DNA of 32,000 nucleotides from Candidatus Saccharimonadota bacterium (GTDB taxonomy: Bacteria; Patescibacteriota; Patescibacteriia; 2-12-FULL-60-25): the NCBI GenBank assembly GCA_016699205.1, contig CP064964.1, positions 120,001-152,000 on the forward strand, read 5' to 3'. Made by a program: the position numbers and the translations under genes. Shown here in pieces: positions 2,522 to 28,149 of the stretch (positions are counted from its first letter, which is position 1; every line of letters starts with the position of its first letter). The notes under the pieces are model-generated. The model had not been told where the DNA came from, ran no database searches, and worked only from the letters and a program-made list of their open reading frames with translations.

Positions 2522-4048
2522 TCAGGTTACAGGACAGGCAGATCGTGGCACGGTCGGCGTGCTCACGCCATAGCCTACGGCTGTGTCTGCCACCCCGCGC
2601 GCAAACGACATGCGTGTGTCGTGGTTGGGCGGGAGAGATCGGCCTCGACGGGCGGAGTTTTCTTCCCAGAATGTCGTAGCCGCTTCATCGTATTGCTCAT
2701 TTGTTGCATTGCAACCTACTCGACGAACAACAGATTGCAGCGCTCCACCTCCGGAGTTATGGGCGAAATAGAGCAACGTCACGTAACGGTGCGCATCGGT
2801 GAGGCCGGGACAAAGACGATTAATGAGTGAGGCGCCTTGGCGCAACTGGCCGACGGAGGCCGCGGCCGTGTTGATTTCCGGGTTGACCAAACGATTGCAA
2901 TCTTCTGCACGACCGTGACTGCGCAGAGCGCATGTGTCCGGACGGACTTGAAACAATCCTGTGTAACCCCAGCGATTAGTGACACATTCTCGGAAACCAG
3001 ACTCCTTGTAAGCGACGGCTTTTAAGATACGCCAGTCCAAGCCGGCGCAACCGGCATACCTCTGGAAGAGGGAGTCATAGGTAGAGTCACTTCTGGAACG
3101 GCGAGGGGCATCGCACGAGGAGGATGGTGTACCTGCCGGTGCTTCACCAAATTCTTCCACTCCACCGGCTTCTTCCAACGTTACTCCCGCAACATATCCA
3201 AGTTCTAGCGTCTTTAGCTGGGTTGTTGCGGGACTGATCGTGTTTAAAATCGCAAACGCAGCCAAAGTGATAATCATGCCCATGATCGCATCGGTGATAA
3301 TGCGTTTTCCGTTTTGAATACTGCCTACGCCAGCCGAGCCTACGAGATAAAGAAAGCCTCCGTATACGACCATCACGATCGCGACCACGAGGATAATGCC
3401 GGTGAGATAACGATAGACAGCGTTGATGTAGCCGGCGAGAAACGCGACACGCACGACGCCGCCTTCACGCGTCGGGGCCTCGGGAGTAAAGCCGGGGATT
3501 GGGGTGCCAAGTTGGGGGGTGATAGGGACAAACTCCGGTTCAGGCGTCTCTTCTGCCGAGGAATCGGATGAGGAGGAGGGGAGTCCAACACCGCAGGTTC
3601 TTCCCGAAATTCTGTCGCCAACACATCTGATTCCTACATTACAGTCTGCATCGCTAGTACAGGCACCTCCCATTGGTTGGCGACACGTACCAGAGACACA
3701 TGTCGTGTCGCCGGCACAAGGGCGTGATTCGTTACACGATAAGCGTGTGTCGATTGTTGATGGATCAAACGGACCGCCTGATGCTCCGGTGGTGACGACG
3801 CATACGTTACGGCTAAAACCTTCCGGAGTTGCGCACGATTCCGAGGCGTTACATTCCGTTGCGGAACCAAAAATATCTGCGGGCGGAGTGCATGTCTTAA
3901 AGCAAAAACGAGAACCTACAGCTCCGATACAAATTTGTCCGGAGGGGCATGCATCCGCGGCGCCGCACGGGCCTACTTGAGCCGCAGCGGGCATTACGGA
4001 TGTAAAAAGTCCTACGACGCAAATAAAGAGTGTGAGAACGACGCGCAT
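2522..4048 (-). CDS. Secreted, membrane-anchored Cys-rich protein: signal peptide, 16-Cys head, Ser-rich linker, T4SS-pilin-like two-TM hairpin and a C-terminal lytic transglycosylase (SLT-like) domain
   Basis: 508 aa. Signal-like N-terminus MRVVLTLFICVVGLFTSVMPAAAQ. Sixteen Cys between aa 28 and 152. Hairpin: VRVAFLAGYINAVYRYLTGIILVVAIVMVVYGGFLYLVGSAGVGSIQNGKRIITDAIMGMIITLAAFAILNTI. SLT motifs: AYKESGF (catalytic Glu-Ser), GLFQV, YFAHNSGGGAL. Paralog of 4090..5691. Confidence 0.85.
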   Translation of the reverse strand: MRVVLTLFICVVGLFTSVMPAAAQVGPCGAADACPSGQICIGAVGSRFCFKTCTPPADIFGSATECNASESCATPEGFSRNVCVVTTGASGGPFDPSTIDTRLSCNESRPCAGDTTCVSGTCRQPMGGACTSDADCNVGIRCVGDRISGRTCGVGLPSSSSDSSAEETPEPEFVPITPQLGTPIPGFTPEAPTREGGVVRVAFLAGYINAVYRYLTGIILVVAIVMVVYGGFLYLVGSAGVGSIQNGKRIITDAIMGMIITLAAFAILNTISPATTQLKTLELGYVAGVTLEEAGGVEEFGEAPAGTPSSSCDAPRRSRSDSTYDSLFQRYAGCAGLDWRILKAVAYKESGFRECVTNRWGYTGLFQVRPDTCALRSHGRAEDCNRLVNPEINTAAASVGQLRQGASLINRLCPGLTDAHRYVTLLYFAHNSGGGALQSVVRRVGCNATNEQYDEAATTFWEENSARRGRSLPPNHDTRMSFARGVADTAVGYGVSTPTVPRSACPVT

Positions 4049-4054
4049 ATTTGT

Positions 4055-4083
4055 ATTTTACATTAAAAAACCCGATGGACCAA
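4055..4083 (-). promoter_or_regulatory. Sigma70-like promoter (TTGGTC-N17-TAAAAT) ending 6 nt before the ATG of 2522..4048; predicts a leaderless mRNA
   Basis: The minus strand reads TTGGTC (4083-4078), a 17-nt spacer, TAAAAT (4060-4055), ACAAAT, then ATG (4048). It lies inside the 41-nt gap after the upstream stop. Confidence 0.45.
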
Positions 4084-4089
4084 TTGATA

Positions 4090-5691
4090 CTAAGGGTTTC
4101 CCATTGGACGCCATGCCCAAATACAGATTTTTGGATTAGCACGATTGCGTGACGACGATACAAGATTCGACAGGTATGATCTGGCGCTGCTGTATGCCTG
4201 CATTCCACTCAATGTAACCTCCAGGCCTGCATTTTCAGAGGCTCTCCGGCCTCCACCGGAAGAAATATCCCCGCGTCCACCTGAACCCATCTCCATCATC
4301 TCATACCCAAGTCCTGCGCCGCCCGTGTACATGAAAACGTGTCCAGCATTTTCACCGATATACGAAATAACATCTCCAAAACGCAGACGCGAAATAACAC
4401 CATCGATATGACCTTCTGTAATTGTTCCGCCTAAGTCATCACGCTCCAGTCGAAAAACGTAGAGTGACTCGTCTGAGGGACCTTGAGGTCTACAATTTCC
4501 CCCAACATTTGTAGGCCGATTTCCCATAACACGAGTGCGTCCTTCAGATCCGGCAAAACACATGTACAGATCACGTACAGTCGTCGCACAGTCTCCGCAA
4601 AGGAGTCCAGCCGTGTTTGCCCTTGAGGTCACCAGTCGATCGTATTCAGCCCTCCAGGCGCTTAAACACTGAGTGTCGTTAGATGCAACGAGTTGATTAC
4701 AGGGGCTCGTCAATCGAACGTTTCCCTCAAAGCCTTCAAGGAGCCCGCGTAGGTAATTCGCCTGACCGTGATTACCACGACAGCTTGCGTCTCCACCTCT
4801 TATATAAATCGCACCTCCCTCATCTGCGCCAACCGTTTTCCAGACTCGTACAATTTCTTTTAGTTTCTCTACCTTTTGAGGGTAAGACAGCGACATGCCG
4901 TTGCGTGACCCACAGACTGCCAACATTCGCGCTCGCCAAGTCCCGGCTTCACCGCCGGCGGGAAGGTCTGAAGCAGATCTATAAGCTTCCTCATCTCCTA
5001 GCGAGCCTAAACTTTCCTGAAGTCTAAAATCGAGCTCCACACGTTTTACAAATGCTAATTCCAATACCTTTAGATTTGTTGTATCCGGATTAATAATGTT
5101 CAAGATTCCGAAAGAAGCTAAAATGAGGAGCATCCCCACGATCGCATCCGTAATAATTTTTTTCCCTCTTTTGATTTCTCCGATTCCTGCGGAACCGCCA
5201 AGATAGAGGAAGCCTCCGTAGACGCACATAACGATCGCGATGACGAGCGCGATGGTCGCAAGATATCGATACGCGGCATTAATGTACTCTGCTAAAAATG
5301 CGACTCGAACTAGACCACCCTCTTGTGACGCTGGGGTTAAGCTGCCACCAGGAATCGGCACCCCGAGTTGTGGGGTGATCGGCACAAAGGGTACCTCTGT
5401 TACAGCCTCTTCCGTAGATTCCGATGAGGAGCTTGGAGGAGCTGAGAGTTCACAGACATCTTGTCCGATTCCGGTTGGGCGTCCGCACGATTCTCCAGCA
5501 GGGCACGCATCGATTGCGCCGCTGGCGGCTGCTGGATTGCAGGTTCTATAGCAGAGACGGGAGCCTTCCGGACCTACGCAAACTTGGCCGGGCGCACAGG
5601 TATTTGTACCACTACACGGACCGACTTGCGCGTGTACGCCCAACGGCAAAACGATCGCTGTGATGCAGATCGCGATGCGAAGGAACCGCAT
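4090..5691 (-). CDS. Secreted, membrane-anchored Cys-rich protein: signal peptide, 8-Cys head, Ser-rich linker, T4SS-pilin-like two-TM hairpin and a C-terminal putative NlpC/P60- or CHAP-like cysteine peptidase domain
   Basis: 533 aa. N-terminal half is collinear with 2522..4048: AQVGPC..C.PGQ.C.G..GSR.C..TC, FVPITPQLG.PIPG, EGG.VRVAFLA.YINA.YRYL, VYGGFLYL.GSAG.G.I..GK.IITDAI.GM. C-terminal part has GLLCGDCATTVRDLY (candidate catalytic Cys) and GDVISYIGENAGHVFMYTGG (candidate His), resembling the papain-like amidase pattern. Confidence 0.8.
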   Translation of the reverse strand: MRFLRIAICITAIVLPLGVHAQVGPCSGTNTCAPGQVCVGPEGSRLCYRTCNPAAASGAIDACPAGESCGRPTGIGQDVCELSAPPSSSSESTEEAVTEVPFVPITPQLGVPIPGGSLTPASQEGGLVRVAFLAEYINAAYRYLATIALVIAIVMCVYGGFLYLGGSAGIGEIKRGKKIITDAIVGMLLILASFGILNIINPDTTNLKVLELAFVKRVELDFRLQESLGSLGDEEAYRSASDLPAGGEAGTWRARMLAVCGSRNGMSLSYPQKVEKLKEIVRVWKTVGADEGGAIYIRGGDASCRGNHGQANYLRGLLEGFEGNVRLTSPCNQLVASNDTQCLSAWRAEYDRLVTSRANTAGLLCGDCATTVRDLYMCFAGSEGRTRVMGNRPTNVGGNCRPQGPSDESLYVFRLERDDLGGTITEGHIDGVISRLRFGDVISYIGENAGHVFMYTGGAGLGYEMMEMGSGGRGDISSGGGRRASENAGLEVTLSGMQAYSSARSYLSNLVSSSRNRANPKICIWAWRPMGNP

Positions 5692-5695
5692 AGGT

Positions 5696-6367
5696 TTAAA
5701 AAATACGCGCCTTTAGGATCGCCCACTGGAATTCTCCTGCTTTGACGTAGCCGGTCAGGCTTTCATCGCCAATAAAAAATGTTGGGGCTCCGGTCATTCC
5801 GTGGTCTTTGGCGAGCTGGATATCGTTTTGAATATCGATGATGTGGCGGCCGGACTGAACGCACGTGTTAAAGGAGGAGACGTCGAGGCGCAGTTCCGTG
5901 GCCTTTGCCTGCAGAGATGGGAGATCGATCGTGCTCATCTTGAGGAGCGCGTCATGCATGTCCCAGAATCTGCCTTGGTCGTTTGCGCAACGTCCGGCGG
6001 AGGCGGCGAGGATGGCGTCGGGTCTGTCGCTTGCGACGGGCATATCGCGCCAAACGTGGCGGATACCCGTGGGATAGGCTGCAAGAATTGCGACGAGCTC
6101 CGGTTCCGACGCTCGGCAGTAGGCGCAGGTATAGTCGGCAAATTCTACAATGACGATTGCGTCTGTCGACGTGGAGCCGCGAGCGGGATCGGTAGAACGG
6201 ATCGGGGGGAGTTGCGGCGCACCGAGTTGCGAGTCGGGAGTGTAAGCGGGACGCGTACCTGCTTGGAACGTCGAGACAGCACGGAAGATCAGGCTCCACG
6301 CCAACAACAAGCTCAACACGCCAAAGATGCCGAGAAATAGCCAAAGGAGACGGTTCCGATCGTCCAT
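5696..6367 (-). CDS. Membrane-anchored DsbA-like thiol:disulfide oxidoreductase (thioredoxin fold, CAYC active site)
   Basis: 223 aa. N-terminal TM LLWLFLGIFGVLSLLLAWSLIF, then VIVEFADYTCAYCR (CxxC), and GAPTFFIG near the C-terminus (cis-Pro loop region). The stop is 4 nt from the next ATG (TAA-ACCT-ATG). Confidence 0.85.
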   Translation of the reverse strand: MDDRNRLLWLFLGIFGVLSLLLAWSLIFRAVSTFQAGTRPAYTPDSQLGAPQLPPIRSTDPARGSTSTDAIVIVEFADYTCAYCRASEPELVAILAAYPTGIRHVWRDMPVASDRPDAILAASAGRCANDQGRFWDMHDALLKMSTIDLPSLQAKATELRLDVSSFNTCVQSGRHIIDIQNDIQLAKDHGMTGAPTFFIGDESLTGYVKAGEFQWAILKARIF

Positions 6368-6370
6368 AGA

Positions 6371-7606
6371 TTACAAGTCAAAGCGAATCAGCCGTCCGCT
6401 GATTTGATCGGTGAAGATTGCGGAGCGGCCATCTGGCGTAACGCTCATGTTTTGCACGGCGGCACCGCCTTGTGGCTGACCAAGGTTGATCTTTTCTCCC
6501 GTAGCCAAATTGATTTTCCAAATTTCGTCTGGGTTGTTCTGAAATATTTCTCGCTGGAGTCCGGCACCCTGTCCCAATCGAGTTGGTACGCCACAAATAA
6601 GCGTTTGCTCGCCCTGCCACGTGCACTTGTCTGCCCACGTGTTGATCTGGAGGTTTATGCGGTTAGCATTAATAGAATCGCCGGCGGCGCCGCTGACCCA
6701 AAGTGTTGGAAGGTAGTTATTTGCGCTGGTATGCACGGAGTACAAGAGGTTTTGACCGGAAGGAGCCCAGTTGGGAATAAATCCGCGGCCTTCTACGACC
6801 AAGCCTTTGAAGTTTTCTTGATTTTGACCAAGCAAAATAATCTGCTGACGATCAAGACCGAGCGGTTCCCCTGTAAAGGAATAGGCGACAATTTGATTAT
6901 TTGGCGACCAGCTGGAATGGACTTTGTTTTGATTCTCCCCAAGGCTTTCAATTGGACGAGCATTGGTTCCATCAGGATTTGAGACAACGAGAAAGCGATT
7001 ATCCTCATTGTTGCCTACGCTTTTGGCGACGATACGGTCATCGTCTGGAGAAAATTGAAAATCTTCCCAGTGTTTTGGAAGCGTCACCTGACGATCGTTG
7101 GAGAAATCATAGAGAATGTTGGAACCGTCCGGATAGTTGATGATCGCTTTGTCCGAAGAGTTGCCCCAGGCGACGGTATCGACATTGAAAAATGTTTGAT
7201 TGCTCATGGGAACAGACTCGCCGCTTGTTGAGATGCGATAAAAACGTCCGTCTTCCGGATTGTAGCCACGGATTTGGCCGTTTTGTGAAACCGAGACAGA
7301 GCGTGTCGGGGTCGAGCGGAGGACTTGGGTGCGGGGAGCGGTGGGGATTCCTGTTGGAATAGAAGGCACGAATGGCGTGCCTGGTTGAACCGGCAAACCA
7401 CCGGGACCGGTCGGAGTCGTCGTAGCAACTTGGGGACCGCCCGTACCTGCCGAAGGCAAGGTACCGCCAGGCTGAATGGTACCCGTAGGCGGTGTCACGA
7501 CCGCTCCTGGTGGACGGAAGAATACCCAATAAATACCGAAGGCGATTCCAATAACAACCAGAAAAAAGCCTACGATCAAAAGGACACGTTGCAAGCGTTC
7601 GTTCAT
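6371..7606 (-). CDS. N-terminally anchored TolB-like / PD40 beta-propeller repeat protein
   Basis: 411 aa. TM VLLIVGFFLVVIGIAFGIYWVFF, a Pro/Thr/Gly-rich linker, then repeated PD40-type motifs: FSPDDDRIVAKS, WSPNNQIVAYSF, WAPSGQNLLYSV, VTPDGRSAIFTD. Confidence 0.8.
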   Translation of the reverse strand: MNERLQRVLLIVGFFLVVIGIAFGIYWVFFRPPGAVVTPPTGTIQPGGTLPSAGTGGPQVATTTPTGPGGLPVQPGTPFVPSIPTGIPTAPRTQVLRSTPTRSVSVSQNGQIRGYNPEDGRFYRISTSGESVPMSNQTFFNVDTVAWGNSSDKAIINYPDGSNILYDFSNDRQVTLPKHWEDFQFSPDDDRIVAKSVGNNEDNRFLVVSNPDGTNARPIESLGENQNKVHSSWSPNNQIVAYSFTGEPLGLDRQQIILLGQNQENFKGLVVEGRGFIPNWAPSGQNLLYSVHTSANNYLPTLWVSGAAGDSINANRINLQINTWADKCTWQGEQTLICGVPTRLGQGAGLQREIFQNNPDEIWKINLATGEKINLGQPQGGAAVQNMSVTPDGRSAIFTDQISGRLIRFDL

Positions 7607-7636: not shown

Positions 7637-10045
7637 TCAGAACAAATCGATCAGTTCAGATAAGCCAAAGGATACACTCGAAACAGCCCCTGTAACCGAG
7701 GCAATAAATATAATCACTCCCATGATCGCCGAAAGAACGGCTAAGCAGACCAGAATATCGAAACAAAGGATAACGCCGCACTCATAGGGATATCCGGCGC
7801 GTGGCGTAAACGGTAGGTCTCTTTTAAAAACCGTGAGTATGAGTCGGATATTCAAGTGCGCGACCGTGAGCAAAATACCAACAACATCCGCCGCACCGTG
7901 AACGGTGTCGAATGCGTCAACGAGGTTAGAAAACGTCTTTTTTGCCGTTTGAATTTTTTGCTTCTGACTCTCTGCTTGGTCAGCAGCGATTTGGCCGTTT
8001 TTCTGATTCTGCTGTTGTTGACCCTGCCGTTGGATGGCCTGAGCCGTGGCTTGCTGCAAAGCTGCGGCACGGGCTATTTCCTGTTGAGAGGGGCCCACGG
8101 GCGGACGAGGCCGCTCGGCTGGTGTCGAGATTGTTGCAGACTCACTTGAAGGCCTGTTTTCGATACCGGAATCAAAGCGCTCTGTCTGACGCGGCTCAGT
8201 CGACAAACTCTGATTGATCTCCGACATTCGTGAACGACCTTCTTCTTCACGAGCGCCGTAGATGTCAGCTGGCTCGTCTTCTTCATCATCAGCACCGGCG
8301 GCGTAGGTCTGGGTTTGGGCTTGCGGCGTGTCGAGTGGTCCGGAAAAGGGCGCAAGTCCTCCTTCTGTGGCAAGCGCTTCTTCAGACGAGTCGCTGAGCG
8401 TGCTGTCTTCATAAGCCTGTTGACCAGCGCCGCGATCATAGGCTTGATCGGCGTTGAAATCAGCTGCACGACGAGCTTGGCCGCCAAGCGTCGACAAGCT
8501 TCCGCCAAGCGGGCGGAGCGGTTTTGGCGAGCGAATGGCCGGATTTGCCGCGGATGCGGTTGGACGAGTCGGGATTCCGGGAGCGTAGGCTCTCGGTCGA
8601 GCAACTCTTGGGGGAGTAGGGAGCGCGGCTGAAGCGGCAGCGGCACCGCCTTGTTGCATTCGCGGAGCAACAGATGGCAGCCTCGGCAATAAACGCTGAA
8701 CCGCAAGAACTTTTGCTTCTGGAATTTCACCGCTCTTATCAGGGACAAGTTCTTCGACGGCTTTTACAATCAATGCTGCCTTATTGTTTTCGTTAATGGC
8801 CGTGACTTGAATGTCGGTTTGCTGATCGAGCAAGGATCGGCGCTCGCTTTGCGCCTGAACCATCTGCTGCTCGTAGACTACGGCCTGACCGCCATCGCCA
8901 CCTGCCAACGATTGACGAGATCGCTGCTGTAAATCGTTAATGCGATTGGAGACGTCGGAAATCTGATTAGATAATTCCTGGATTTGGTTTTGACGATTCG
9001 CCGCAGAATTTGCGTAAGTCGCCAATACATTTTGTGCAGCCGCGATGGCAGCGTTTGCTCCGGTATTTGTCGCCGGAATTGTTGCGGCGACGGCAGCTAC
9101 AGCGGCGACGGCTCCCTGCGCGACTGCGCCCGATGCAGCACGGGACTGTTGAAGCGCCTCGCGCGTTGCACGAATTGAGGTCTGCGATGAGGAGGGGATG
9201 GTCGCTGTCGTTTCAATCGTGGCCTCGACATCCAGCGGAGCGGTAACCGCCGGAATCGCAACATCAACATCGGTTAGGGCGATGGATTGGCCACTCGATG
9301 ATAGGTACTCGATTTGCGAAGGCTGTATGGACGAAAGCGTCGTTTCCAGCTGACGCAACACTTTTCCATCCGTATCGACGGACAAAGAAACCGTACGCTG
9401 ACCAGGCGGATCCTGAATCGTAATACGACCCTGCTCAAACGCGCGCTGAATTTGAGCGGTTTTATCTTGATCGATTTCTCCGCCTTGATCCTGAATGATG
9501 CGCGGCTCTTTTGAAGCGGATCTTGATCTTGCGCGAGAGGTAGATGGGGTCGCGAGAGGATTTCTTGAAAGATTCTGCGTGCTGCGCAGCATCTCCCCGG
9601 ATTTCATCCAGCGAGGACCCTCGGCGTCGCTAACGAGAACTTCATCGCTCTGTGCATCGTAGCCGATGACTTGAGCGGATTTTCCATCGAGAGCAACACT
9701 TTTACCAAAGTAGCCGCTTACGGCTTTGGAAAGATTCTTTTTGGTTTTGCGACCGGAAGCCAAATCACTTTCACGCTGGGCATCGAGAAGCGTTTTATAT
9801 TGCTCGTAGGGGATTTGGATGTTTTCAACGGTATCGCCGGATCGACGGACAGCACGGACGGTATTTCGCAAGCTGTCGTAGCCGATAATGGTGACGTTGC
9901 GCGTGGCTTTTGGACCAACGGTTAAAAACGTCCCAAAAGAGACGTCCTTACCGGGTTGGTCTGCCTCTGATGAATCATCGCTTTGCGGCGTTTCATCGAT
10001 TGGCTCCTCATCCGGAAGCGGCTGTACTTCTGCAGCATCCGCCAT
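7637..10045 (-). CDS. Large hypothetical protein: acidic N-terminus, two IGYD-containing repeats, Ala/Gln-rich coiled-coil-like and Pro-rich disordered core, C-terminal TM segments
   Basis: 802-aa uninterrupted ORF with no signal peptide. Repeats: FGTFLTVGPKATRNVTIIGYDSLRNTVRAV and YFGKSVALDGKSAQVIGYDAQSDEVLVSD. Heptad-like stretch NRQNQIQELSNQISDVSNRINDLQQRS. C-terminal hydrophobic stretches VVGILLTVAHLNIRLILTVF and GVILCFDILVCLAVLSAIMGVIIFIASVTGAV. No family recognised. Confidence 0.75.
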   Translation of the reverse strand: MADAAEVQPLPDEEPIDETPQSDDSSEADQPGKDVSFGTFLTVGPKATRNVTIIGYDSLRNTVRAVRRSGDTVENIQIPYEQYKTLLDAQRESDLASGRKTKKNLSKAVSGYFGKSVALDGKSAQVIGYDAQSDEVLVSDAEGPRWMKSGEMLRSTQNLSRNPLATPSTSRARSRSASKEPRIIQDQGGEIDQDKTAQIQRAFEQGRITIQDPPGQRTVSLSVDTDGKVLRQLETTLSSIQPSQIEYLSSSGQSIALTDVDVAIPAVTAPLDVEATIETTATIPSSSQTSIRATREALQQSRAASGAVAQGAVAAVAAVAATIPATNTGANAAIAAAQNVLATYANSAANRQNQIQELSNQISDVSNRINDLQQRSRQSLAGGDGGQAVVYEQQMVQAQSERRSLLDQQTDIQVTAINENNKAALIVKAVEELVPDKSGEIPEAKVLAVQRLLPRLPSVAPRMQQGGAAAASAALPTPPRVARPRAYAPGIPTRPTASAANPAIRSPKPLRPLGGSLSTLGGQARRAADFNADQAYDRGAGQQAYEDSTLSDSSEEALATEGGLAPFSGPLDTPQAQTQTYAAGADDEEDEPADIYGAREEEGRSRMSEINQSLSTEPRQTERFDSGIENRPSSESATISTPAERPRPPVGPSQQEIARAAALQQATAQAIQRQGQQQQNQKNGQIAADQAESQKQKIQTAKKTFSNLVDAFDTVHGAADVVGILLTVAHLNIRLILTVFKRDLPFTPRAGYPYECGVILCFDILVCLAVLSAIMGVIIFIASVTGAVSSVSFGLSELIDLF

Positions 10046-10060: not shown

Positions 10061-10125
10061 CGGGCGGGGGACATTGACATTTCGGGTTTCTCATGACAGT
10101 TTCCTTTGGCACATTTGGAGGCGAT

Positions 10126-10677
10126 ATGAAGACGCTCATACTTGTCCGACACTGTCAGAGCGACTGGAACGCAATCAAGCGTCTAAGCGGCCAGGACGAC
10201 ACGGCGCGACTAAACGAGGAGGGGAAAGGTCAGGCTATCAAGCTCGGGATGCAGTTGCTTGCAGCCACGTCGGAGTTCTCACACATTGTGTGTTCGGATC
10301 TCGAGCGTGCGCAGCAGACAGCGCATTTTCTCCGTGAAGCACTCAATGTACCGATCCTGACCGAACCCCGCTTCCGCGAGGTCCATCTCGGCAGTCTTGA
10401 CGGCAAGACTCGCGAAGAGATTCTGTCGACAGATCGAGGCAGAGAGTTGCTCGACTCGCTACATAGGGCGTATGACTTCCGCGAATTCGGCGGCGAGTGT
10501 AGCGACACGGTGCTGGATCGGCACCTGAAAGCTGTCGAGGAGGCGCTAAAAAGCTGTCCGGATGGCTGCACAATGGTTGTGGTCGGACATGGCAGCTCGC
10601 TGCGGACACTGCTCCGACACTATCACCCCGATCGCGATCTACACGCACAAGGCGGTTACGACTCCGTTCTCATCTGA
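10126..10677 (+). CDS. Histidine phosphatase family protein (phosphoglycerate mutase-like)
   Basis: LILVRHCQSDWN (RHG-type catalytic His motif) and VVGHGSSLR (second His). I prefer ATG 10126, which is preceded by GGAGG at 10117-10121. The ORF track starts at ATG 10093. Confidence 0.85.
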   Translation: MKTLILVRHCQSDWNAIKRLSGQDDTARLNEEGKGQAIKLGMQLLAATSEFSHIVCSDLERAQQTAHFLREALNVPILTEPRFREVHLGSLDGKTREEILSTDRGRELLDSLHRAYDFREFGGECSDTVLDRHLKAVEEALKSCPDGCTMVVVGHGSSLRTLLRHYHPDRDLHAQGGYDSVLI

Positions 10678-10716: not shown

Positions 10717-11517
10717 TTACGATACTTTTATTGTGTTCTTGGTTACCTTCAACGTTCCTTTTTTCTTGTTTGGATGCTCGATCAGCATTTCCGACAAAAG
10801 CGACATCACTTCACGCTCGACGATGCGCCGTGCGGCTCGAGCTCCTTCATCAGTCGAGAATTCGCGCTTCATGAGCCAGTCGAGGACGTCGTTGCCAGCG
10901 GAAAGCGCGACATCCTGAGCCTCTTTCACACGGCTCAAAATAATATCCAGTTCGCGTCGGACAATATTGCGCAAGGTTTCCGACTCAAGCGGTTTGAAGA
11001 CAACGATGCGATCGAGACGATTCAAAAGCTCGGGGCGGAATCGCTCTTTGAGCTGGGTGCGGACGAGGGATTCAAATCCGTCGGTAGAATCGCCAAAGCC
11101 GAGGGAAGAACGATTTAAATACTCTGCGCCGACATTGGAAGTGAGCACGATGTAGGCATGGCGGAAGGGGATATGGCGGCCTGTTCCGTCCGTGATTTTT
11201 CCATCTTCAAGCGCCTGCAAGAGCAGATGCTGGACATCAGGATGAGCTTTTTCGAATTCATCGAACAAGAGAACCGCGTGCGGATGTTTGCGGATCGTAT
11301 CGGCGAGGCGGTTGCCTTCACGGAAGCCAACATAACCAGCCGGAGAACCGAGTAACTTGGAAACAGAGTGACCTTCTGCAAATTCCGACATGTCGAGCTT
11401 CACTAAGGGCGTCTTCACGGCCAAACAACTCATGCGCGAGCGCTTTTGCGAGTTCGGTCTTACCGGTTCCGGAAGGACCGACGAACAAGAAGCTGGCACG
11501 CGGACGTTTTGGATCAC
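10717..11517 (-). CDS. clpC: ClpC/ClpB-type AAA+ chaperone, C-terminal fragment (real coding starts near 11406 after a frameshift)
   Basis: [44 protein letters not shown] (Walker B), GRHIPFRHAYIVLTSN, RPELLNRLD (sensor 2 region). It continues the NBD2 begun in 11318..13237. Confidence 0.9.
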   Translation of the reverse strand: MIQNVRVPASCSSVLPEPVRPNSQKRSRMSCLAVKTPLVKLDMSEFAEGHSVSKLLGSPAGYVGFREGNRLADTIRKHPHAVLLFDEFEKAHPDVQHLLLQALEDGKITDGTGRHIPFRHAYIVLTSNVGAEYLNRSSLGFGDSTDGFESLVRTQLKERFRPELLNRLDRIVVFKPLESETLRNIVRRELDIILSRVKEAQDVALSAGNDVLDWLMKREFSTDEGARAARRIVEREVMSLLSEMLIEHPNKKKGTLKVTKNTIKVS

Positions 11518-13237
11518 TCAAACCGAGACGGGATTTGCGTACCGTTTCAGCCACTTCTTTTACAACATGATTCTGGCCAAAGATTTTTTTGGCGAGATTA
11601 CCTTCCATTCCGCGCAGCTGCTCGCGCTCGGCCTTGATGACTGATTCGTATGGAACGCGGGCAAGACGAGCAACGATACGCGCTACGTGCTCAACGGTTA
11701 CAGTCGGACGATCTTGTTTGCGCGTTTCTGCCATCGATTTTTCAATACGGCGCTTTTCTGCAAGCAAGCGCTCTTCATTCTCAAGCGCTTGGGAAGCATC
11801 CGGCAGAGAACCGTCGACAACGGCTGCTTCTTTGGATTCGCGAAGGACATCGAGGGCGATTTCCAATGCGCGAAGACGCTCAACGGATTCACGCGAGCGG
11901 CGGCGGGCATTTACGTAAGCGGCGGCTTCATCAAGAACATCGATAGCCTTGTCCGGGAAAAATCGATCTGTGAGATAACGCTCTGATAAACGGATGGCAG
12001 CTTCAAGGGCATCCGGCGCATAACGGACGCCATGATGCTCTTCATAACGTGTTTTCAGGCCTTGGAGCATCTTCCCTGCGAGTTCTGCTGTCGGTTCCGG
12101 GACATCGACGGGCTGGAAGCGGCGCTCAAGTGCCGCGTCTGGTTCCAAGTGCTTTTTGAATTCATTCCAGGTTGTTGCACCGATACAGCGGATCTCCCCA
12201 CGAGCCAATGCAGGCTTTAGGATATTGGCCGCATCGAGAGAACCTGACGTTGATCCGGCACCAACTAGATTGTGGATTTCATCGATAAAAAGAATCGCTG
12301 TCGGATCAAGGCGCACTTCCTCAACAAGCTGCTTTAAGCGGGCTTCAAATTCACCACGATACATCGTACCGGCAACCATGAGAGCAAGGTCGATGGCGTA
12401 GACACGCTTACCCTGCAGAACATCCGGAACATCACCAGCTGCCAGGCGCTGTGCCAAGCCTTCGACAATCGCGGTCTTACCGACACCCGGCTCGCCGAGT
12501 AATATCGGATTATTTTTGGTGCGGCGGCAGAGAATTTCAATCACGCGGTCAGTTTCTGCATCGCGGCCGATCACAGGATCGAGATTTGCGACTGTGTCCG
12601 GAGCCGTGAGTTCCCGTGCAAAGATTTCAACCGCACGCGGACGTTTGTCGCGTGCGACGCGTCCATGCTGCGGTTGATTTGGAGCAGCATTCGGTGCCGA
12701 GTGAGCCGGAGGCGCCACCTCTGGATTCTCCCCAGAAGGGGGGAGACTCCCAACTTCTTCACGAGCAAGGAGGTCGGGGAAGCGCGAGGTGTTGCGCAAA
12801 ATATGCACGAGCTGCTCTTTAGCCAAATCCAAATTCATGCCATGCGATTCTAAAAACGTATGGACATCCGGAAGTGAGCTTTCGAGAAGCGACAAGAGAA
12901 GATGCTCGGTACCGACATAGCGATGCTCGTGGACATGTGCCATCAGAACACATTTCTCCAGAATGCGGCGGACCGCAGGGGAAAGATCAGGAGCAATCGG
13001 ACTACCTGGCTCATGCGGCTTTGGAAAGCCACGGAAGGCGGACTCGGCCTTCTTGGCGTCGACATTTGATTTATTCAAAAGTTCGGCAGCAATGGAACCA
13101 TGCTGCTGGAGCAAGCCGACTAAAAGATCACCCGGGTCGACGGCGTCGCGACCGCTGCCGATCGCAAACGCGAGCGCGTGCTGTAATGCCTCGCGCAGAT
13201 GTCCCGTAAAACGGGAGAGAAATTCATTGCCGAGCAT
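11318..13237 (-). CDS. clpC: ClpC/ClpB-type AAA+ chaperone, N-terminal fragment (Clp_N repeats, NBD1, short middle domain, start of NBD2)
   Basis: Clp_N repeats ([21 protein letters not shown]). NBD1 [24 protein letters not shown] and [11 protein letters not shown]2 Walker [28 protein letters not shown]. After ~11406 the translation becomes nonsense ([11 protein letters not shown]...), while the +1 frame continues correctly. Confidence 0.9.
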
Positions 13238-17467: not shown

Positions 17468-18064
17468 ATGCTTCAAGTCCTCATCTTCTTGCTGGTTTTA
17501 TCGGTACTCGTCCTTGTCCACGAGGCCGGACATTACATCGCCGCTCGCATTTTTGGGGTAAAAGCCGAGGAATTTGGTTATGGATTCCCTCCGCGCGCCA
17601 TCGGTTTTGTCAAAACCGATAAAGGATGGAAGAAGGTAGCCGGCCGCGATCGATCTAGTTATAAAAACACGGTTTGGTCCCTTAACTGGCTGCCTTTGGG
17701 AGGTTTTGTGCGCTTGAAAGGCGAGGCTGGCGAGGGGACAGGAGACGCTGATTCATTTTTGACAAAGAAGGGCTGGCAGAAATTTATCATTCTGGCGGCT
17801 GGTGTTTGTATGAACTGGGTTTTAGCCATGTTCATTTTTACCATCGGCTTTGCTGTTGGCGTACCGGCCGAGGTTGATGCATTGCCACCTTCCGCGATTG
17901 TCAGCAATCAACATATTGAAATTGTCGAAGTTGTCTCCAAGAGTGCAGCTCAGAATGCCGGGCTTCAACAGGGCGACCAGATCGTCACGATTAATGGACA
18001 GGTTCCGAATAACGCAGAAGCTTCACGCGCGATACTGGCCGATCAAACGGAAAAAGGGTTTTGA
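17468..18064 (+). CDS. rseP: RIP zinc metalloprotease RseP (M50), N-terminal fragment ending at a frameshift-induced TGA
   Basis: VLVHEAGHYIAARIFG (HExxH), a TM segment, and the start of the PDZ domain (AAQNAGLQQGDQIVTINGQ). Confidence 0.9.
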   Translation: MLQVLIFLLVLSVLVLVHEAGHYIAARIFGVKAEEFGYGFPPRAIGFVKTDKGWKKVAGRDRSSYKNTVWSLNWLPLGGFVRLKGEAGEGTGDADSFLTKKGWQKFIILAAGVCMNWVLAMFIFTIGFAVGVPAEVDALPPSAIVSNQHIEIVEVVSKSAAQNAGLQQGDQIVTINGQVPNNAEASRAILADQTEKGF

Positions 18065-18632
18065 ATTAACATTGGAAATCAAACGCGATGGGACAATGCA
18101 GACGATTCAAGCCAAGCCTGAGTTTTTGGACGCGCTAGGAAAACCGGGTCTAGGAGTCGCGATTGCGAATATCGGGACGGTGCGTTTCCCATTACATCTT
18201 GCTGTTGTGCAAGGCGTGACTGTAACGGCGCAGTATACGTGGCTCATTATTAATGGATTCTTTAGCTTGATCGGATCTCTCTTTGGCGATCGCAAGCTTG
18301 CTGGTGAAGTTTCAGGTCCGATTGGCATTGCTGTATTAACAGGACATGTTGCGAGCCAGGGTTTTTGGGCACTGATGCAGTTTGCTGCATTGTTGTCGCT
18401 CAACTTAGCCGTCATTAACTTTTTGCCGATTCCAGCGCTGGATGGTGGACGTGCGCTTTTCGTCGTGGTGGAATCGTTACGACGGAAACGCAATAACCCG
18501 CGCTTTGAAGCAGCGATTCATCAGGCCGGATTTGTGGCGTTGATCATTCTTATCCTACTCGTCACCGCACAAGACATTGGTCGATACGGCGGCACGATCT
18601 GGAATGGCCTGAAGGGTATCATCGGTCTCTAA
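17850..18632 (+). CDS. rseP: RseP C-terminal fragment (real coding resumes near 18060 in the +1 frame)
   Basis: GFELTLEIKRDGTMQTIQAKPE (end of the PDZ domain), GPIGIA and LLSLNLAVINFLPIPALDGGRALF (M50 NxxPxxxLDG motif). Translation upstream of ~18056 in this frame is nonsense. Confidence 0.9.
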   Translation: MLLAYRPRLMHCHLPRLSAINILKLSKLSPRVQLRMPGFNRATRSSRLMDRFRITQKLHARYWPIKRKKGFELTLEIKRDGTMQTIQAKPEFLDALGKPGLGVAIANIGTVRFPLHLAVVQGVTVTAQYTWLIINGFFSLIGSLFGDRKLAGEVSGPIGIAVLTGHVASQGFWALMQFAALLSLNLAVINFLPIPALDGGRALFVVVESLRRKRNNPRFEAAIHQAGFVALIILILLVTAQDIGRYGGTIWNGLKGIIGL

Positions 18633-23585: not shown

Positions 23586-25274
23586 GTGTCGATCTCCATT
23601 ATGTCCGATCAAGCTCCGACAATCGCCAAATCGCCGTTCGTGCATCTGCACGTACATTCGATGTACTCGCTGTATGACGCGATCGGAAGTCCGGATGATA
23701 TTGTCGAGAGAGCAAAAGAACTTGGTTATGACGCGATCGCTTTGACCGATCATGCCGCTTTATATGGCGCCATCGAATTTTATGAAGCGGCGCACAAAGC
23801 GGGCATCAAACCGATTATCGGAATCGATGCGTATCTTGCGACGAACAAGCACACCGATAAACGTGCAGGTATCGACAACAGGACTTCACGCTTAGTTTTG
23901 CTGGTTGAAAATAATGAGGGTTATCAGAATCTTCTTAAACTTGTTTCTATTTCTTTTCTAGACGGTTTTTATTATAAGCCACGTTTAGATAAAGATTTGC
24001 TTCGAGAACATCGAGCTGGATTGATTGCGCTATCAGGCGGGCTGAAGGGCGATATTCCGCAGGCGCTACAAGCGCATGATATGGAGCGGGCAGAGAAGCT
24101 CGTAGCCGAGTATAAAGATATTTTTGGACCAGATCATTTTTTTCTGGAAGCTGTATGGCATCCGGAATCGCCGACACAGAACGATGTTAATGAATTGATG
24201 TTTGAGCTAGCCAAGAAAACGGATACAAAAATTGTTGCGGCCAAGAATGTTCATTATTTACACGAAGAGGATCGTGAAGCTCAGGACGTGCTGGTTTGTA
24301 TTCATGATGGAAAAACCGTGGATGATCAGGCGCGTGCGTCGATGACGGGTATCGATCTTTCTCTGACAGCTATCGAACCGATGGTTGAGGCCTTTAAGGA
24401 TCATCCTGAGGCGATTGAGAATACGCGCATCATCGCTGATCGCTGCGAGGTGAAGTTTGAATTGGGAACAAATCATCTTCCGCGCTTTGATTTGCCGGAA
24501 GGGGAGACGGAGATGGGGTATTTGCGAACGCTATGTGAGCGCGGACTTCTTGATCGATACTCTGAACCTGAGAAGCAGAAAGAGGCAAAAGAACGGCTTG
24601 ATTTTGAATTGGCGACGATTGAGCGCATGGGATTTGCCGCTTACTTTTTAATCGTGTCCGATTATATTAATTGGGCCAAGGATCATGGCGTGATCGTGGG
24701 ACCGGGTCGCGGATCGGCGGCCGGATCGATCGTGGCTTACTCGCTCAAAATCACCAACCTTGATCCGCTGCGCTACGGTTTGCTTTTTGAGCGTTTTCTC
24801 AATCCTGACCGTATCTCGATGCCGGATATCGATACGGACTTTGATGATGTGAAACGTAAGGACGTGATCCAGTACGTCATGGATAAGTACGGGCACAATC
24901 GTGTTGCGGGAATTATTACATTTGGAACGATGGCGGCGCGTGCTGCGGTACGCGATGTGGGCCGTGCTTTGGGCATGAGTTACGCGGATGTTGATCGTAT
25001 TTCAAAAGTGATTCCGCCGCCGGTGCAGGGGAGACATATTCCGCTTGAAAAATCGAAAGAAGAATCGCCGGAGCTCAAGGCGATGTATTACAGCGACCCG
25101 CGTGTCAAACGCTTGGTTGATTTGGCGATTCGATTGGAAGGGACAACGCGCCACGCGTCGCAGCATGCATGTGGAATCGTGATTTCACCAAAAGCGCTGG
25201 TTGAGTTTGCGCCGCTGCAAAAAGCCCAAGGCGGCGATGTGGAACAAGTTGTCCAATATTCACTGCTTTTGTAG
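23586..25274 (+). CDS. dnaE: DNA polymerase III alpha subunit DnaE, N-terminal fragment (PHP and palm domains), ending at a frameshift-induced TAG
   Basis: FVHLHVHSMYSLYDAIG (PHP domain), ALTDHAALYG, GPGRGSAAGSIVAYSLKITNLDP, PDIDTDF, HACGIVIS. The start is probably ATG 23601; the ORF track uses GTG 23586. Confidence 0.93.
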   Translation: MSISIMSDQAPTIAKSPFVHLHVHSMYSLYDAIGSPDDIVERAKELGYDAIALTDHAALYGAIEFYEAAHKAGIKPIIGIDAYLATNKHTDKRAGIDNRTSRLVLLVENNEGYQNLLKLVSISFLDGFYYKPRLDKDLLREHRAGLIALSGGLKGDIPQALQAHDMERAEKLVAEYKDIFGPDHFFLEAVWHPESPTQNDVNELMFELAKKTDTKIVAAKNVHYLHEEDREAQDVLVCIHDGKTVDDQARASMTGIDLSLTAIEPMVEAFKDHPEAIENTRIIADRCEVKFELGTNHLPRFDLPEGETEMGYLRTLCERGLLDRYSEPEKQKEAKERLDFELATIERMGFAAYFLIVSDYINWAKDHGVIVGPGRGSAAGSIVAYSLKITNLDPLRYGLLFERFLNPDRISMPDIDTDFDDVKRKDVIQYVMDKYGHNRVAGIITFGTMAARAAVRDVGRALGMSYADVDRISKVIPPPVQGRHIPLEKSKEESPELKAMYYSDPRVKRLVDLAIRLEGTTRHASQHACGIVISPKALVEFAPLQKAQGGDVEQVVQYSLLL

Positions 25275-25279
25275 AAGTA

Positions 25280-27142
25280 ATGGGCTTGCTCAAGATGGAC
25301 TTCTTGGGATTGTCCAACTTGAGCGTTATTCGCGACTGCTTGGAAATCGCTAAAGCCGTTCACGGAGCTGAGGTCGACATGGAGACATTGCCGCTGGATG
25401 ACGCAAAGACGTTTGAATTGTTGGGTAAGGGTATTACGACCGGTGTATTCCAGCTTGAATCGGATGGAATGAAGAAGTATATCCGCGAGCTTAGGCCGAC
25501 GGTTATCGAAGACATTATCGCTATGGTGGCGCTGTATCGACCTGGTCCGATGCAGTTTATCGAGTCGTTTATTGACCGTAAGCATGGGCGCGAGAAAATT
25601 ACCTATATCCATCCGCTGACGGAGAATGCGCTCAAAACAACGTACGGTCTTCCGATTTATCAGGAGCAAGTGATGCAAGTCGCAAAAGACATGGCCGGCT
25701 TTACAGGCGGCCAAGCTGACACGTTGCGTAAAGCCATGGGTAAAAAAATCGCCAAGCTCATGGCAGAAATGCGCACCAAGTTTATTGATGGATCATTGGC
25801 AAATGGCGTTCCCCAAGAAAAAGCCGAGGCTATTTTTACGCAGTTTGAAGAATTTGCTGCGTACGGCTTCAACAAGTCGCATGCCGCTTGTTACGCATTG
25901 ATCGCGTATCAGACGGCGTATTTGAAAGCGCATTTTCCGGATGCCTTCATGGCAGCACTGATGAACTCAGATATTTCCAACCTTGACCGCATCACGATTG
26001 AAGTTGAGGAGTGCCGTGATATCGGACTGGAAGTCACACCGCCAGATATTAATGAATCATTCCGCGGATTTGCTGTCGTGAAGGGGACAAACAAGATTCG
26101 CTTTGGACTATTGGCTATCAAAGGCATCGGAGAAGATGTGGTTGAAACGATTTATCAGGAGAGAAAAGCGAAGGGACCTTATAAGAATCTGGAGGACTTT
26201 GTTACACGCGTAACGGGAAAGCATATTAATCGACGTTCGCTTGAATCATTGATCAAATCTGGCGCGCTGGATCGCTTTGGAGATCGCAATCAGCTTTACT
26301 TTAATATCGAGGCGATTCTTGAATATCAGAAGCGCGTGACACAGGAAGCAAACTCCGGACAGTTTAATTTGTTTGCTTTGTCGAGCGTGAATCTTTCGCA
26401 GCCAGCTTTGACGTTAAAACCTGCACCGCCTGCAGCGACACGCGACATTCTGATTTGGGAAAAAGAATTGCTCGGACTGTATATTTCCGCGCATCCCTTT
26501 AAAGATTTCTCGCATCAGCTCGCGGGCCTGGTTACCGAGATCAAAGACCTGCCGCTCAAAACAAAGGAAAAGAGCGTCAGAACAGCGGGCTTTATCACGC
26601 AGGCGAAAAAAATCCTAACCAAAAATGGCGAGCCGATGGTGTTTACCAAGCTTCAGGATATGGGTGGTGAAATTGAAGCGGTTATTTTTCCGCGCGTGTA
26701 CAAAGAAAAGCCGGAGCTCTGGGAATCGGATAAAGCCGTGGTCCTTTCTGGACGCGTACAGCTGAAGGACGGGGAGCCGAAGTTTTTGGTTGAGTCCGGA
26801 TATGAGATTACGCAGGATAATATCGAGCAGGTGCGTCAGCAGTTTATGGGGAGCGGAGCTGTACACCAGCAGGTTGAAGAGTCTGTTCAGACGGAAGCAC
26901 CTGCTAAAAAATCCGCTGATGCCGTGACCATTCACCTGCGCGCCCATCTCCCCGAAACGATCCTCTACAAACTTCGAGCGGTTCTCGACGCGCATCCGGG
27001 ACGTTTCCGTGTTTACTTTGCTGTCGACAATGCCGGCGGACAACAAAAGATTCTCTCATCGTATAAAATTACATTTGATGAACTGATCGCCAAAGAGCTA
27101 GAGATGATTCTCGGACCGGATACGGTGAAAGTCGAAGCCTAA
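25280..27142 (+). CDS. dnaE: DnaE C-terminal fragment (fingers, beta-binding, OB fold); real coding resumes near 25268 in the -1 frame
   Basis: GLLKMDFLGLSNL, LYRPGPM, YQEQVMQ, RKAMGKK, GFNKSHAACYA, and an OB-fold region (VRTAGFITQAKKILTKNGEPMVFTKLQD). Confidence 0.93.
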   Translation: MGLLKMDFLGLSNLSVIRDCLEIAKAVHGAEVDMETLPLDDAKTFELLGKGITTGVFQLESDGMKKYIRELRPTVIEDIIAMVALYRPGPMQFIESFIDRKHGREKITYIHPLTENALKTTYGLPIYQEQVMQVAKDMAGFTGGQADTLRKAMGKKIAKLMAEMRTKFIDGSLANGVPQEKAEAIFTQFEEFAAYGFNKSHAACYALIAYQTAYLKAHFPDAFMAALMNSDISNLDRITIEVEECRDIGLEVTPPDINESFRGFAVVKGTNKIRFGLLAIKGIGEDVVETIYQERKAKGPYKNLEDFVTRVTGKHINRRSLESLIKSGALDRFGDRNQLYFNIEAILEYQKRVTQEANSGQFNLFALSSVNLSQPALTLKPAPPAATRDILIWEKELLGLYISAHPFKDFSHQLAGLVTEIKDLPLKTKEKSVRTAGFITQAKKILTKNGEPMVFTKLQDMGGEIEAVIFPRVYKEKPELWESDKAVVLSGRVQLKDGEPKFLVESGYEITQDNIEQVRQQFMGSGAVHQQVEESVQTEAPAKKSADAVTIHLRAHLPETILYKLRAVLDAHPGRFRVYFAVDNAGGQQKILSSYKITFDELIAKELEMILGPDTVKVEA

Positions 27143-27714: not shown

Positions 27715-28149
27715 ATGCGCATTAGTTTTCTTGGTGCCGCGCGCGAAGTCACCGGCTCGCTGTACCTGATCGAAACCAAGACAACAAACATCCTGGTTGA
27801 TTGCGGGATGCATCAGGGCTGCAATACATGCGATGTTAAAAATCTTGTTGATTTTCCATTTGACGTAAAAACCGTTCAAGCCGTTCTTTTGACGCATGCG
27901 CACCTTGATCATTGCGGAAGAATTCCCAAGTTGATTAAAGCGGGCTTCAAAGGAAAAATTTATGCAACGGCGCCTACTATGAAACTGGCGACGCTTGTTC
28001 TAGAAGATGCTCAGCACATCATGGAGGAGGATCATAAGCGCGAGGGGACTCCGATTCTCTATTCTCGCGAAGATGTTGCAATGGCCGTAGAGCAGTTTGA
28101 GATTGTCGATTATAGCCGGGAGGTGACCGTTGGCGATTTGGTTTGCTGA
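27715..28149 (+). CDS. Beta-CASP metallo-beta-lactamase family ribonuclease, N-terminal part ending at an in-frame TGA
   Basis: MRISFLGAAREVTGS and LLTHAHLDHCGRIP (HxHxDH). The same frame continues after the TGA with PRDAGHIFGSAF (motif 3 His). Confidence 0.88.
   Translation: MRISFLGAAREVTGSLYLIETKTTNILVDCGMHQGCNTCDVKNLVDFPFDVKTVQAVLLTHAHLDHCGRIPKLIKAGFKGKIYATAPTMKLATLVLEDAQHIMEEDHKREGTPILYSREDVAMAVEQFEIVDYSREVTVGDLVC

Follow-up and report, generated by a model that had tools for sequence, protein, structure and literature searches.

Much of bacterial diversity belongs to the Patescibacteria, whose members live attached to other cells. Their type IV secretion system (T4SS) loci carry arrays of VirB2-like pilins, and most genomes with such pilins have no recognisable VirB1 (PMC12102498). 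The same survey counts VirB2 matches and arrays and does not mention long fusion proteins. The T4SS and pilin arrays of Patescibacteria are the only system of this kind shown to be essential for epibiotic life (PMC10633639, PMC12857230). Here, two adjacent genes, A and B, were analyzed in a 32,000-nucleotide stretch ("the window") of an assembly registered as Candidatus Saccharimonadota bacterium (GCA_016699205.1, contig CP064964.1, positions 120,001 to 152,000), the nearest named relatives of which are metagenome-assembled genomes (MAGs) of Candidatus Uhrbacteria and Patescibacteria. Each product combines a Cys-rich head, a pilin module and a different C-terminal domain (the cargo), and it is likely that both are outward-facing, pilin-scaffolded peptidoglycan hydrolases of an Uhrbacteria-like Patescibacteria bacterium. 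Related loci and related proteins are labelled L001 etc. and P0001 etc., respectively, and all proteins built in this way are referred to as scaffold proteins.

A and B resemble the pilins of family PF18895 in Patescibacteria (VirB2/TrbC-like; Quinonero-Coronel et al. 2025, PMC12102498; Wang et al. 2023, PMC10633639) in having a signal peptide, YVPLTP..IPG, a pair of hydrophobic helices connected by a basic loop, and TINPD. Both the pilins and the scaffold proteins form tandem arrays of divergent paralogues and are restricted to Patescibacteria. However, A and B are 4-5 times longer, with a Cys-rich head placed after the leader and ahead of the pilin N-terminus and an enzyme past the pilin C-terminus, and they lie beside DsbA and RadA genes rather than virB4; neither reaches the PF18895 cut-off itself. 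A second group for comparison is formed by the VirB1-like peptidoglycan hydrolases of Gram-positive T4SSs (PrgK, TraG of pIP501, CwlT and TcpG; PMC12102498), which are likewise membrane-anchored, modular wall hydrolases (predicted to face outward in the present case) and draw on the same cargo repertoire (SLT, CHAP or NlpC/P60-like, M23 and glucosaminidase). Known VirB1-like enzymes have a single N-terminal anchor and several catalytic domains per protein and are encoded inside a conjugation locus, whereas the scaffold proteins have one catalytic domain (rarely two), a pilin-hairpin anchor and no T4SS genes nearby.

Two further kinds of systems resemble the scaffold proteins in their modularity. 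Polymorphic toxins and effectors (CdiA-CT, Rhs, LXG, and the wall-degrading Tae/Tge effectors of the type VI secretion system) also consist of a conserved N-terminal part, a junction motif and an exchangeable C-terminal enzyme, with the cargo replaced at one locus. Unlike them, the scaffold proteins have no immunity genes, are predicted to be retained in the membrane, vary in the N-terminal head as well, and carry cargo that has so far been nearly always a wall hydrolase, not a nuclease or pore former. In modular phage endolysins and autolysins, amidase, M23, CHAP/NlpC, SLT and glucosaminidase domains are shuffled onto a constant non-catalytic part in a similar way, but the constant part is here a pilin hairpin with a disulfide-rich head rather than a LysM, SH3b or choline-binding domain, and the genes are chromosomal and syntenic.

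An initial annotation of the window, made from the letters and their translations, had described A and B as paralogues with heads and a hairpin in common and unrelated C-termini. BLASTP agreed with this description. The two proteins are 53% identical over A110-292 and B25-221 (E 3e-48), their heads align separately (A5-83 with B4-80, 42% identity, E 1e-15), and nothing significant was found by BLASTP past A292 and B221, that is, after LK(T/V)LEL. A forced global alignment gave 30% identity between the two tails, which was discarded as meaningless because BLASTP finds no local similarity. All motifs quoted in that annotation were located at the expected positions, including the shared AQVGPC (A23/B21), FVPITPQLG(T/V)PIPG (A173/B102) and LK(T/V)LEL (A278/B207), the A-specific AYKESGF (346), GLFQV (364) and YFAHNSGGG (427), and the B-specific CGDCATTV (365) and GHVFMYTGG (450). 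The modules of A and B are 68% identical in protein and 64% in DNA, but third codon positions agree in only 35%, and the two genes have no exact DNA repeats in common. The low third-position identity and the lack of exact repeats imply that the duplication is old and that the similarity has been kept by selection, rather than by chance or recent gene conversion.

The hairpin, taken from the start to be of pilin type, matches PF18895 (T4SS_pilin) in both proteins along almost the entire profile (positions 7-71 of 71), and approximately 40 relatives have a near-full match as well (positions ~6-71 of 71). Several relatives exceed the Pfam cut-off of 26.6 bits (P0011 27.6, P0034 27.2, P0130 37.5, P0139 32.8, P0163 31.1 and L045 29.7 bits), one relative also matches TrbC/VirB2 (PF04956) below the cut-off (23.8 vs 27.9 bits), and B touches the NCBIfam model of the Mbov_0395 pilin-like conjugal transfer protein. 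In the reverse direction, a profile built from the module recovered canonical short PF18895 pilins of 113-207 aa with E-values of 1e-12 to 1e-15. The alignment of these short pilins with the module shows the same leader, YVPLTP..IPG motif, GG in the first transmembrane helix (TM1), loop Lys, second transmembrane helix (TM2) and TINPD, and most of the short pilins stop 10-15 residues past INPDxVxL, which is the point where the cargo of A and B starts. This shared signature, together with the coincidence of the pilin end and the cargo start, indicates that the module is a complete pilin. By sequence, FVPITPQLGxPIPG is thus the pilin's own N-terminal motif, and A and B are pilins with a predicted head inserted after the leader and a predicted enzyme attached to the C-terminus.

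The module of B starts with FVPITPQLGVPIPG, continues through a short strand, TM1, the GKKIITDA loop and TM2, and ends with INPDTTNLKVLEL. Hydropathy places the two hydrophobic segments at approximately 213-235 and 249-271 in A and 142-164 and 178-200 in B, joined by a basic loop (GKRIITDA or GKKIITDA), and the AlphaFold2 model of A has helices at model residues 180-213 and 218-248. An archaeal conjugative pilin appeared among the non-significant helical-hairpin Foldseek matches of the A model (E 2.8); a simple hairpin cannot discriminate in such a search.

As first annotated, the cargo of A is a lytic transglycosylase domain of the SLT type, matching PF01464 above the Pfam cut-off (E 5.5e-9, 36.1 vs 21.3 bits, profile positions 2-113 of 117) and containing the ES, GLxQ and AHNxG motifs expected of the family (Glu349-Ser350 in AYKESGF, GLFQV at 364 and AHNSGGG at 429). 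Weak matches to T7 gp16 and MltF were found in the PDB. Judged by the profile match and these motifs, the A cargo is a family-1 lytic transglycosylase with Glu349 as the putative catalytic residue.

The cargo of B may be a Cys peptidase, which is a plausible assignment. Among 15 homologues of this domain, CGDC, FGD..H..TG and EMG.GG are invariant, and these motifs hold the candidate catalytic residues C365/C368, H451 and E467 (C151/C154, H237 and E253 in domain numbering). An AlphaFold2 model of the domain reached a predicted local distance difference test (pLDDT) score of 87.9 and a predicted template-modelling score of 0.89. In the DSSP assignment of this model (domain numbering), Cys154 opens a helix (154-175), His237 lies in a strand (236-241) and Glu253 in a further strand (251-254). 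A Cys at a helix N-terminus with His and Glu on consecutive strands looks papain-like in the model, and the top, non-significant Foldseek matches in both libraries searched were mostly papain-fold proteins (MepS, CHAP, NlpC/P60, Tse1, LRAT, IdeS and tegument deubiquitinases). A homologue search with a tail-only profile found no relatives of the B cargo beyond the scaffold family.

Both proteins begin with a predicted signal peptide and carry a Cys-rich head. In the mature proteins, Cys residues span 28-152 in A (16 Cys) and 26-80 in B (8 Cys), which agrees with the even counts given in the initial annotation, and the Cys map also contains the extra unit reported for A, with Cys at 105, 111, 117, 122, 130, 136, 142 and 152 and C-x5-C spacing. 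In the AlphaFold2 model of A24-292 (pLDDT 78.6), the head consists of four small beta-hairpins, each with four Cys. Behind it come a disordered linker, a pair of short strands, two long helices and, at LKTLEL, a further strand. The structure search suggested at the outset for the heads was carried out with Foldseek on this model of A. It returned knottin-type spider toxins and Dkk1 as top head matches with good local fit, and the likeness to knottins and helical hairpins was not significant in E-value. The second head unit of A also has a sub-threshold DUF7107 match (aa 104-144).

The head and the cargo are predicted to be on the outside of the membrane and the basic loop on the inside, giving an N-out/C-out hairpin. 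Such an outward topology, which had been assumed in the initial annotation for a protein with a cleaved leader and two transmembrane helices, fits the signal peptide, the basic loop, the Cys content of heads and tails together with the adjacent DsbA gene, and the expected enzymology. In the few proteins checked, SLT, M15-like and LAS-like tails contain even numbers of Cys (8, 10 and 12, respectively), and the tails of the two putative Cys-peptidase types contain odd numbers (9 and 7).

The scaffold occurs far beyond this window. With the module profile, approximately 59,800 cluster representatives were matched at E <=1e-3, 15,304 at E <=1e-10 and 304 at E <=1e-30; these totals include short pilins, since the profile recovers them. 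Most of the best 150 matches measure 350-1100 aa and combine a single module with a long tail. Among the best matches, the tails are of many unrelated types. Several are unassigned, and the assignable ones are SLT, M15-like (with SxHxxGxAxD and EWWH motifs), Peptidase_C39_2, Amidase_2, 3D, Peptidase_M23, glucosaminidase (weak) and an FGE-sulfatase-like domain. The cargo of relatives consists almost throughout of wall hydrolases. The search of related genomes for other cargo on the FVPITPQLG.PIPG and hairpin module, proposed with the initial annotation, therefore yielded many further cargo types.

A number of these genes share one genomic position. In Uhrbacteria-like genomes, a recurrent gene order was found, comprising ClpB, an ~800-aa protein, an ~411-aa propeller protein, DsbA, one or more scaffold genes, RadA and RecG. 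A set of 84 non-redundant loci includes 71 with DsbA, 56 with RadA and 51 with both; contig ends truncate many of the others. Where DsbA occurs, it nearly always adjoins a module gene (69 of 71 loci). The slot between DsbA and RadA holds one scaffold gene in 22 loci, two in 13, three in 10 and four in 4. At least eight cargo types occupy this same syntenic slot across related genomes, which strongly supports the domain shuffling on a common scaffold that had been suspected from the two genes of the window. On the other hand, the pairing of an SLT with a Cys/His domain, in which the initial annotation had seen a division of labour between the two genes, is peculiar to this genome (B-type plus SLT). 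The slot contains a P0011-type cargo plus SLT in L003, M15-like plus LAS-like in L001, a single P0011-type cargo in L007, Amidase_2 followed by a 3D protein in L008, and a single M23 in L009.

Several variations of the scaffold and its surroundings were observed. Two-domain tails are present in P0133 (962 aa), P0150 (807 aa), P0067 (832 aa) and P0164, which end in a common C-terminal domain of ~280 aa without a Pfam match ("domain Z"), placed behind a B-type, M15-like or C39_2 domain. Proteins with three to at least ten tandem pilin-like hairpins per chain (P0041, 1147 aa; P0048, 1775 aa; P0036, P0037, P0061, P0072, P0142 and others) rank among the top matches of the module profile and are candidates for polyproteins, VirB6-like channels or gene-call fusions. 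Proteins that appear to have only a head and a module, such as P0040, look like fragments at contig ends and were not counted. A second locus type was found in the same genomes (L027:6209-8500 and L037:6128-8131; also L024, L049 and L050), where a DsbA paralogue is followed by a protein in which an SGNH/GDSL hydrolase (DUF459) replaces the head, ahead of the pilin hairpin and a further tail; the scaffold can thus carry enzymes at both ends. In L001 (Uhrbacteria MAG GCA_021413945.1), a fragment of a TraG/VirB4-type P-loop ATPase (L001:20904-21461, minus strand; PF19044, E 3.4e-15) is located ~7.6 kb from the scaffold pair, on the far side of RadA and RecG. The genes between this ATPase and the slot have no T4SS match, and the equivalent region falls outside the window. 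Many third-party MAG assemblies titled "uncultured Gammaproteobacteria bacterium" (L010, L013, L015, L019, L020 and others) contain the Patescibacteria-type locus with RadA and RecG 55-89% identical to those of the window, and these labels are probably wrong.

The comparison with L003 gives the clearest view of how cargo is exchanged. Protein identity to L003 is 95% for RadA and RecG, 91% for the propeller protein, 88% for the 802-aa protein and 77% for DsbA. Within gene B, the head is 75% and the module 72% identical and the tail has no match, and within gene A, the module is 90% and the SLT tail 76% identical. L003 has a different cargo at the slot position of B and is missing the second head unit of A. 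At the DNA level, where the flanks are ~79% identical, colinearity breaks at window position 5099 (TM2 of B) and restarts at 3532 (FVPITP of A). The replaced block therefore comprises the first cargo and the second head and is bounded by the two paralogous modules. The B head is 75% and 56% identical to the slot-1 heads of L003 and L001, respectively, compared with 91-95% for flanking genes, and neither tail has a match in L001. Heads and cargos assort independently, SLT being found with 8-Cys or 16-Cys heads and the B-type cargo likewise. The B-type cargo is old, because it recurs with 39% identity in L006, where RadA is only 46% identical.

Taken together, these features are compatible with the following sequence of events. 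Each protein would be exported by the Sec pathway and its leader cut between AxA and Q, after which the PF18895 module would insert as a helical hairpin with the GK(R/K)II loop inside and the head and enzyme outside. The DsbA-like enzyme, to judge from its adjacency and the Cys content, may oxidise the head and the cargo. The SLT domain of A would, as in its family, cut glycan strands via Glu349, and the B cargo would most likely cut peptide stems or cross-links as a papain-like Cys peptidase with Cys368 (or Cys365), His451 and Glu467. The pilin module might direct the hydrolase to the assembly site of pilin-type surface structures, and the hydrolase would open the cell's own wall there. We lean, with some hesitation, towards such a VirB1-like role. 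It would explain why the cargo consists of hydrolases only, why the pilin signature is kept outside the membrane and why immunity genes are absent, and it fits both the cargo spectrum, which is that of Gram-positive VirB1-like enzymes, and the published absence of VirB1 from most Patescibacteria with VirB2-like pilins (PMC12102498).

A series of observations weighs against the assignment of A and B as pilin-scaffolded hydrolases and against their link with a T4SS. The window contains no T4SS gene (no relaxase, VirB4, VirD4 or VirB6), 83 of 84 loci have no T4SS genes at distances up to ~7 kb from the slot, and the second locus type also lies among housekeeping genes, with UvrA as the next gene in L027 and no T4SS genes nearby; the connection with a pilus or T4SS therefore comes down to module homology. 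For the same reasons, the original proposal of a conjugative VirB1 enzyme (SLT plus CHAP) split over two genes is not supported, given a window of housekeeping genes and a VirB4/TraG-type ATPase near the slot in just 1 of 84 loci. The PF18895 scores of A (20.6 bits) and B (17.7 bits) are below the Pfam cut-off. The mature proteins are ~485 (A) and ~512 aa (B) long compared with ~70-150 aa expected of a small polymerising pilin, and subunits of 480-510 residues are, to our knowledge, far above any known polymerising VirB2 pilin. As regards the B cargo, no match was found in Pfam, NCBIfam, or phmmer and profile searches of the PDB, and the best Foldseek E-values were 0.27 (PDB) and 0.26 (BFVD). 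An hhalign comparison with C39_2 cargos based on clean alignments gave a probability of 0.2%. A kinship of B-type, M15-like and C39-like tails, for which a first hhalign run had given 90.9-99.9%, was accordingly rejected, the false merging being due to the domain Z that two-domain tails have in common.

The missing matches of the B cargo would be readily understood if this domain were not a peptidase at all, but a binding or regulatory domain or another class of enzyme with a structural Cys/His pattern. The confinement of its homologues to the scaffold family and its richness in Cys, most of which would then probably be engaged in disulfides, are consistent with this possibility. Yet C365/C368, H451 and E467 are invariant and are placed in the model as in papain-fold enzymes, the Cys count is odd (9), papain-fold hydrolases recur as top Foldseek matches in two libraries, and every assignable sister cargo is a wall hydrolase, all of which make a non-peptidase distinctly unlikely. 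Of the peptidase-like C-terminus that the initial annotation had recognised in B, the invariant Cys/His/Glu arrangement thus stands, and the enzyme class is plausible only, with no significant Pfam, PDB-sequence or Foldseek match behind it.

Other roles have been considered for hydrolases displayed in this way. They could be directed at a host, co-assembling with short pilins in a T4SS-type filament or at the contact zone as "armed pilins", with knottin-like heads as adhesins and hydrolases as warheads that breach the wall of a host or neighbour. The exchange of cargo between loci whose flanking proteins are 88-95% identical and whose heads are just 56-75% identical, the presence of one to four paralogues per slot, the coverage of every peptidoglycan bond class by the cargos and the preservation of the complete pilin signature all speak for this role, as does the requirement of the T4SS and pilin array for epibiotic growth of a cultured Patescibacterium (PMC10633639, PMC12857230). 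However, genes A and B are separated by 41 nt and A and radA by 1 nt, no open reading frame (ORF) of at least 60 aa fits in either gap, and no immunity-like gene lies beside A or B. Moreover, the slot is core-genomic among repair and chaperone genes with T4SS genes not nearby, an enzyme tethered by a linker of ~55 residues may be unable to act beyond the wall of its own cell except as part of a filament, and subunits of such size are not known to polymerise. A host-directed function is somewhat unlikely. Its broadest form, in which the T4SS pilin would serve Patescibacteria as a chassis for display and delivery, the host wall would be cut by these proteins, the DsbA-RadA slot with its one to four genes would be a cassette-exchange site for retuning to new hosts, and the same proteins would also supply the missing VirB1 function, is unlikely.

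Alternatively, A and B may be ordinary autolysins that remodel the cell's own wall for growth and daughter separation, with the hairpin as a pilin-derived membrane anchor or oligomerisation device and perhaps under the control of the propeller protein and the 802-aa coiled-coil membrane protein. Membrane tethering is a known way of restraining autolysins, and wall hydrolases of differing bond specificity often replace each other. The operon-like order (802-aa protein, propeller protein, DsbA, hydrolases, RadA) is kept down to 42-46% RadA identity, at least one scaffold copy is present in nearly every locus, and no immunity gene was found, all of which speaks for autolysins. On the other hand, conservation of the module exceeds mere hydrophobicity, the extramembrane YVPLTP..IPG and INPD motifs being common to short pilins, and catalytic domains and heads turn over fast relative to neighbouring genes, a pattern more typical of endolysins or effectors; a plain autolysin is somewhat unlikely. 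The module could also act as an export carrier from which the head, the cargo or both are cut off at the Ser/Glu-rich linker and after LKxLEL, which would release a soluble hydrolase and a mature short pilin. VirB2/TrbC pilins do undergo C-terminal processing, short pilins stop at the cargo start, and both junctions are flexible, low-complexity linkers, but neither a gene for a processing protease nor a conserved cleavage motif was identified, and we regard such pro-proteins as highly improbable. The VirB1-like role at the place of pilin assembly is tentatively retained.

Whatever the target wall, the scaffold proteins physically join a complete pilin module and a predicted wall hydrolase in one protein, and they form a large, syntenic and modular family. 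They offer candidates that can be tested for a part in breaching walls, the swapping of their domains amounts to a natural experiment, and they provide at least one new putative hydrolase fold (the B cargo) and a new disulfide-rich head domain. Should they be plain autolysins, the family would illustrate the ways in which wall hydrolases are anchored and diversified in these monoderm bacteria, whose genomes are reduced. Searches of open-access full text found neither pilin-hydrolase fusions nor the DsbA-RadA slot nor cargo exchange described; combinations of PF18895 and SLT may already be listed in domain-architecture databases.

Table 1. Coordinates of genes A and B, their parts and the upstream genes in the window (E, E-value; residues, amino acid positions in the protein)
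Feature	Window position	Strand	Residues	Description
Gene A	2522..4048	(-)	508 aa	Signal peptide, 16-Cys head, pilin module, SLT cargo
A signal peptide	3980..4048	(-)	1-23	Predicted cleavage between AAA and Q, from the AxA-type site
A head	3569..3979	(-)	24-160	Four 4-Cys beta-hairpin units (16 Cys) and linker
A pilin module	3194..3568	(-)	161-285	PF18895 at aa 207-271, E 4.8e-4; module profile E 2e-53
A cargo	2525..3193	(-)	286-508	SLT at aa 327-449 (window 2702-3070)
Gene B	4090..5691	(-)	533 aa	Signal peptide, 8-Cys head, pilin module, Cys/His cargo; 100% match to P0001
B signal peptide	5629..5691	(-)	1-21	Predicted cleavage between VHA and Q, from the AxA-type site
B head	5425..5628	(-)	22-89	8 Cys, Ser/Glu-rich linker at end
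B pilin module	5050..5424	(-)	90-214	PF18895 at aa 135-200, below cut-off; NF045849 pilin-like match; module profile E 6.5e-54
B cargo	4093..5049	(-)	215-533	CGDC (C365/C368), H451 and E467 invariant; 9 Cys
DsbA-like thiol:disulfide oxidoreductase	5696..6367	(-)		PF13462 and PF01323 matches; 4 nt upstream of B
Membrane-anchored beta-propeller protein	6371..7606	(-)	411 aa	Weak TolB-propeller match; upstream neighbour, syntenic in most loci
802-aa protein	7637..10045	(-)	802 aa	Low complexity, Gln-rich, hydrophobic C-terminal helices; first gene of apparent operon

The three conserved genes upstream of B are listed in Table 1. The 802-aa protein has no Pfam match and is fast-evolving, its identity to the syntenic genes falling from 88% in L003 to 52% in L001 and 35% in L007. 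Both this protein (52-88%) and DsbA (77-83%) change faster than RadA and RecG (93-95%). Promoter-like and terminator-like sites around the genes occur at chance frequency only, and no tRNA gene is present in the window. The remaining gene content is of the housekeeping kind, including RecG, RadA, ClpB, HtpX, LemA, PGM, MurI, RseP, PheST and DnaE.

Several of these housekeeping genes are interrupted. ClpB (639 and 266 aa, overlapping), RseP (198 and 260 aa) and DnaE (562 and 620 aa) are each split into two ORFs in different frames, and a beta-CASP RNase in the window has no N-terminal domain; the split or incomplete genes lie at 10717-13237 (-), 17468-18632 (+), 23586-27142 (+) and 27715-29064 (+). 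ClpB is intact in the syntenic L001 and L003 (837-838 aa), and A and B are also intact. Indel errors in the assembly probably account for the interrupted genes, which may otherwise be pseudogenes. A histidine-phosphatase gene (His_Phos_1, E 2.6e-36) at 10093-10677 (+), on the opposite strand, separates the 802-aa gene from ClpB and looks like a local insertion, since the 802-aa gene and ClpB are directly adjacent in L001 and L003.

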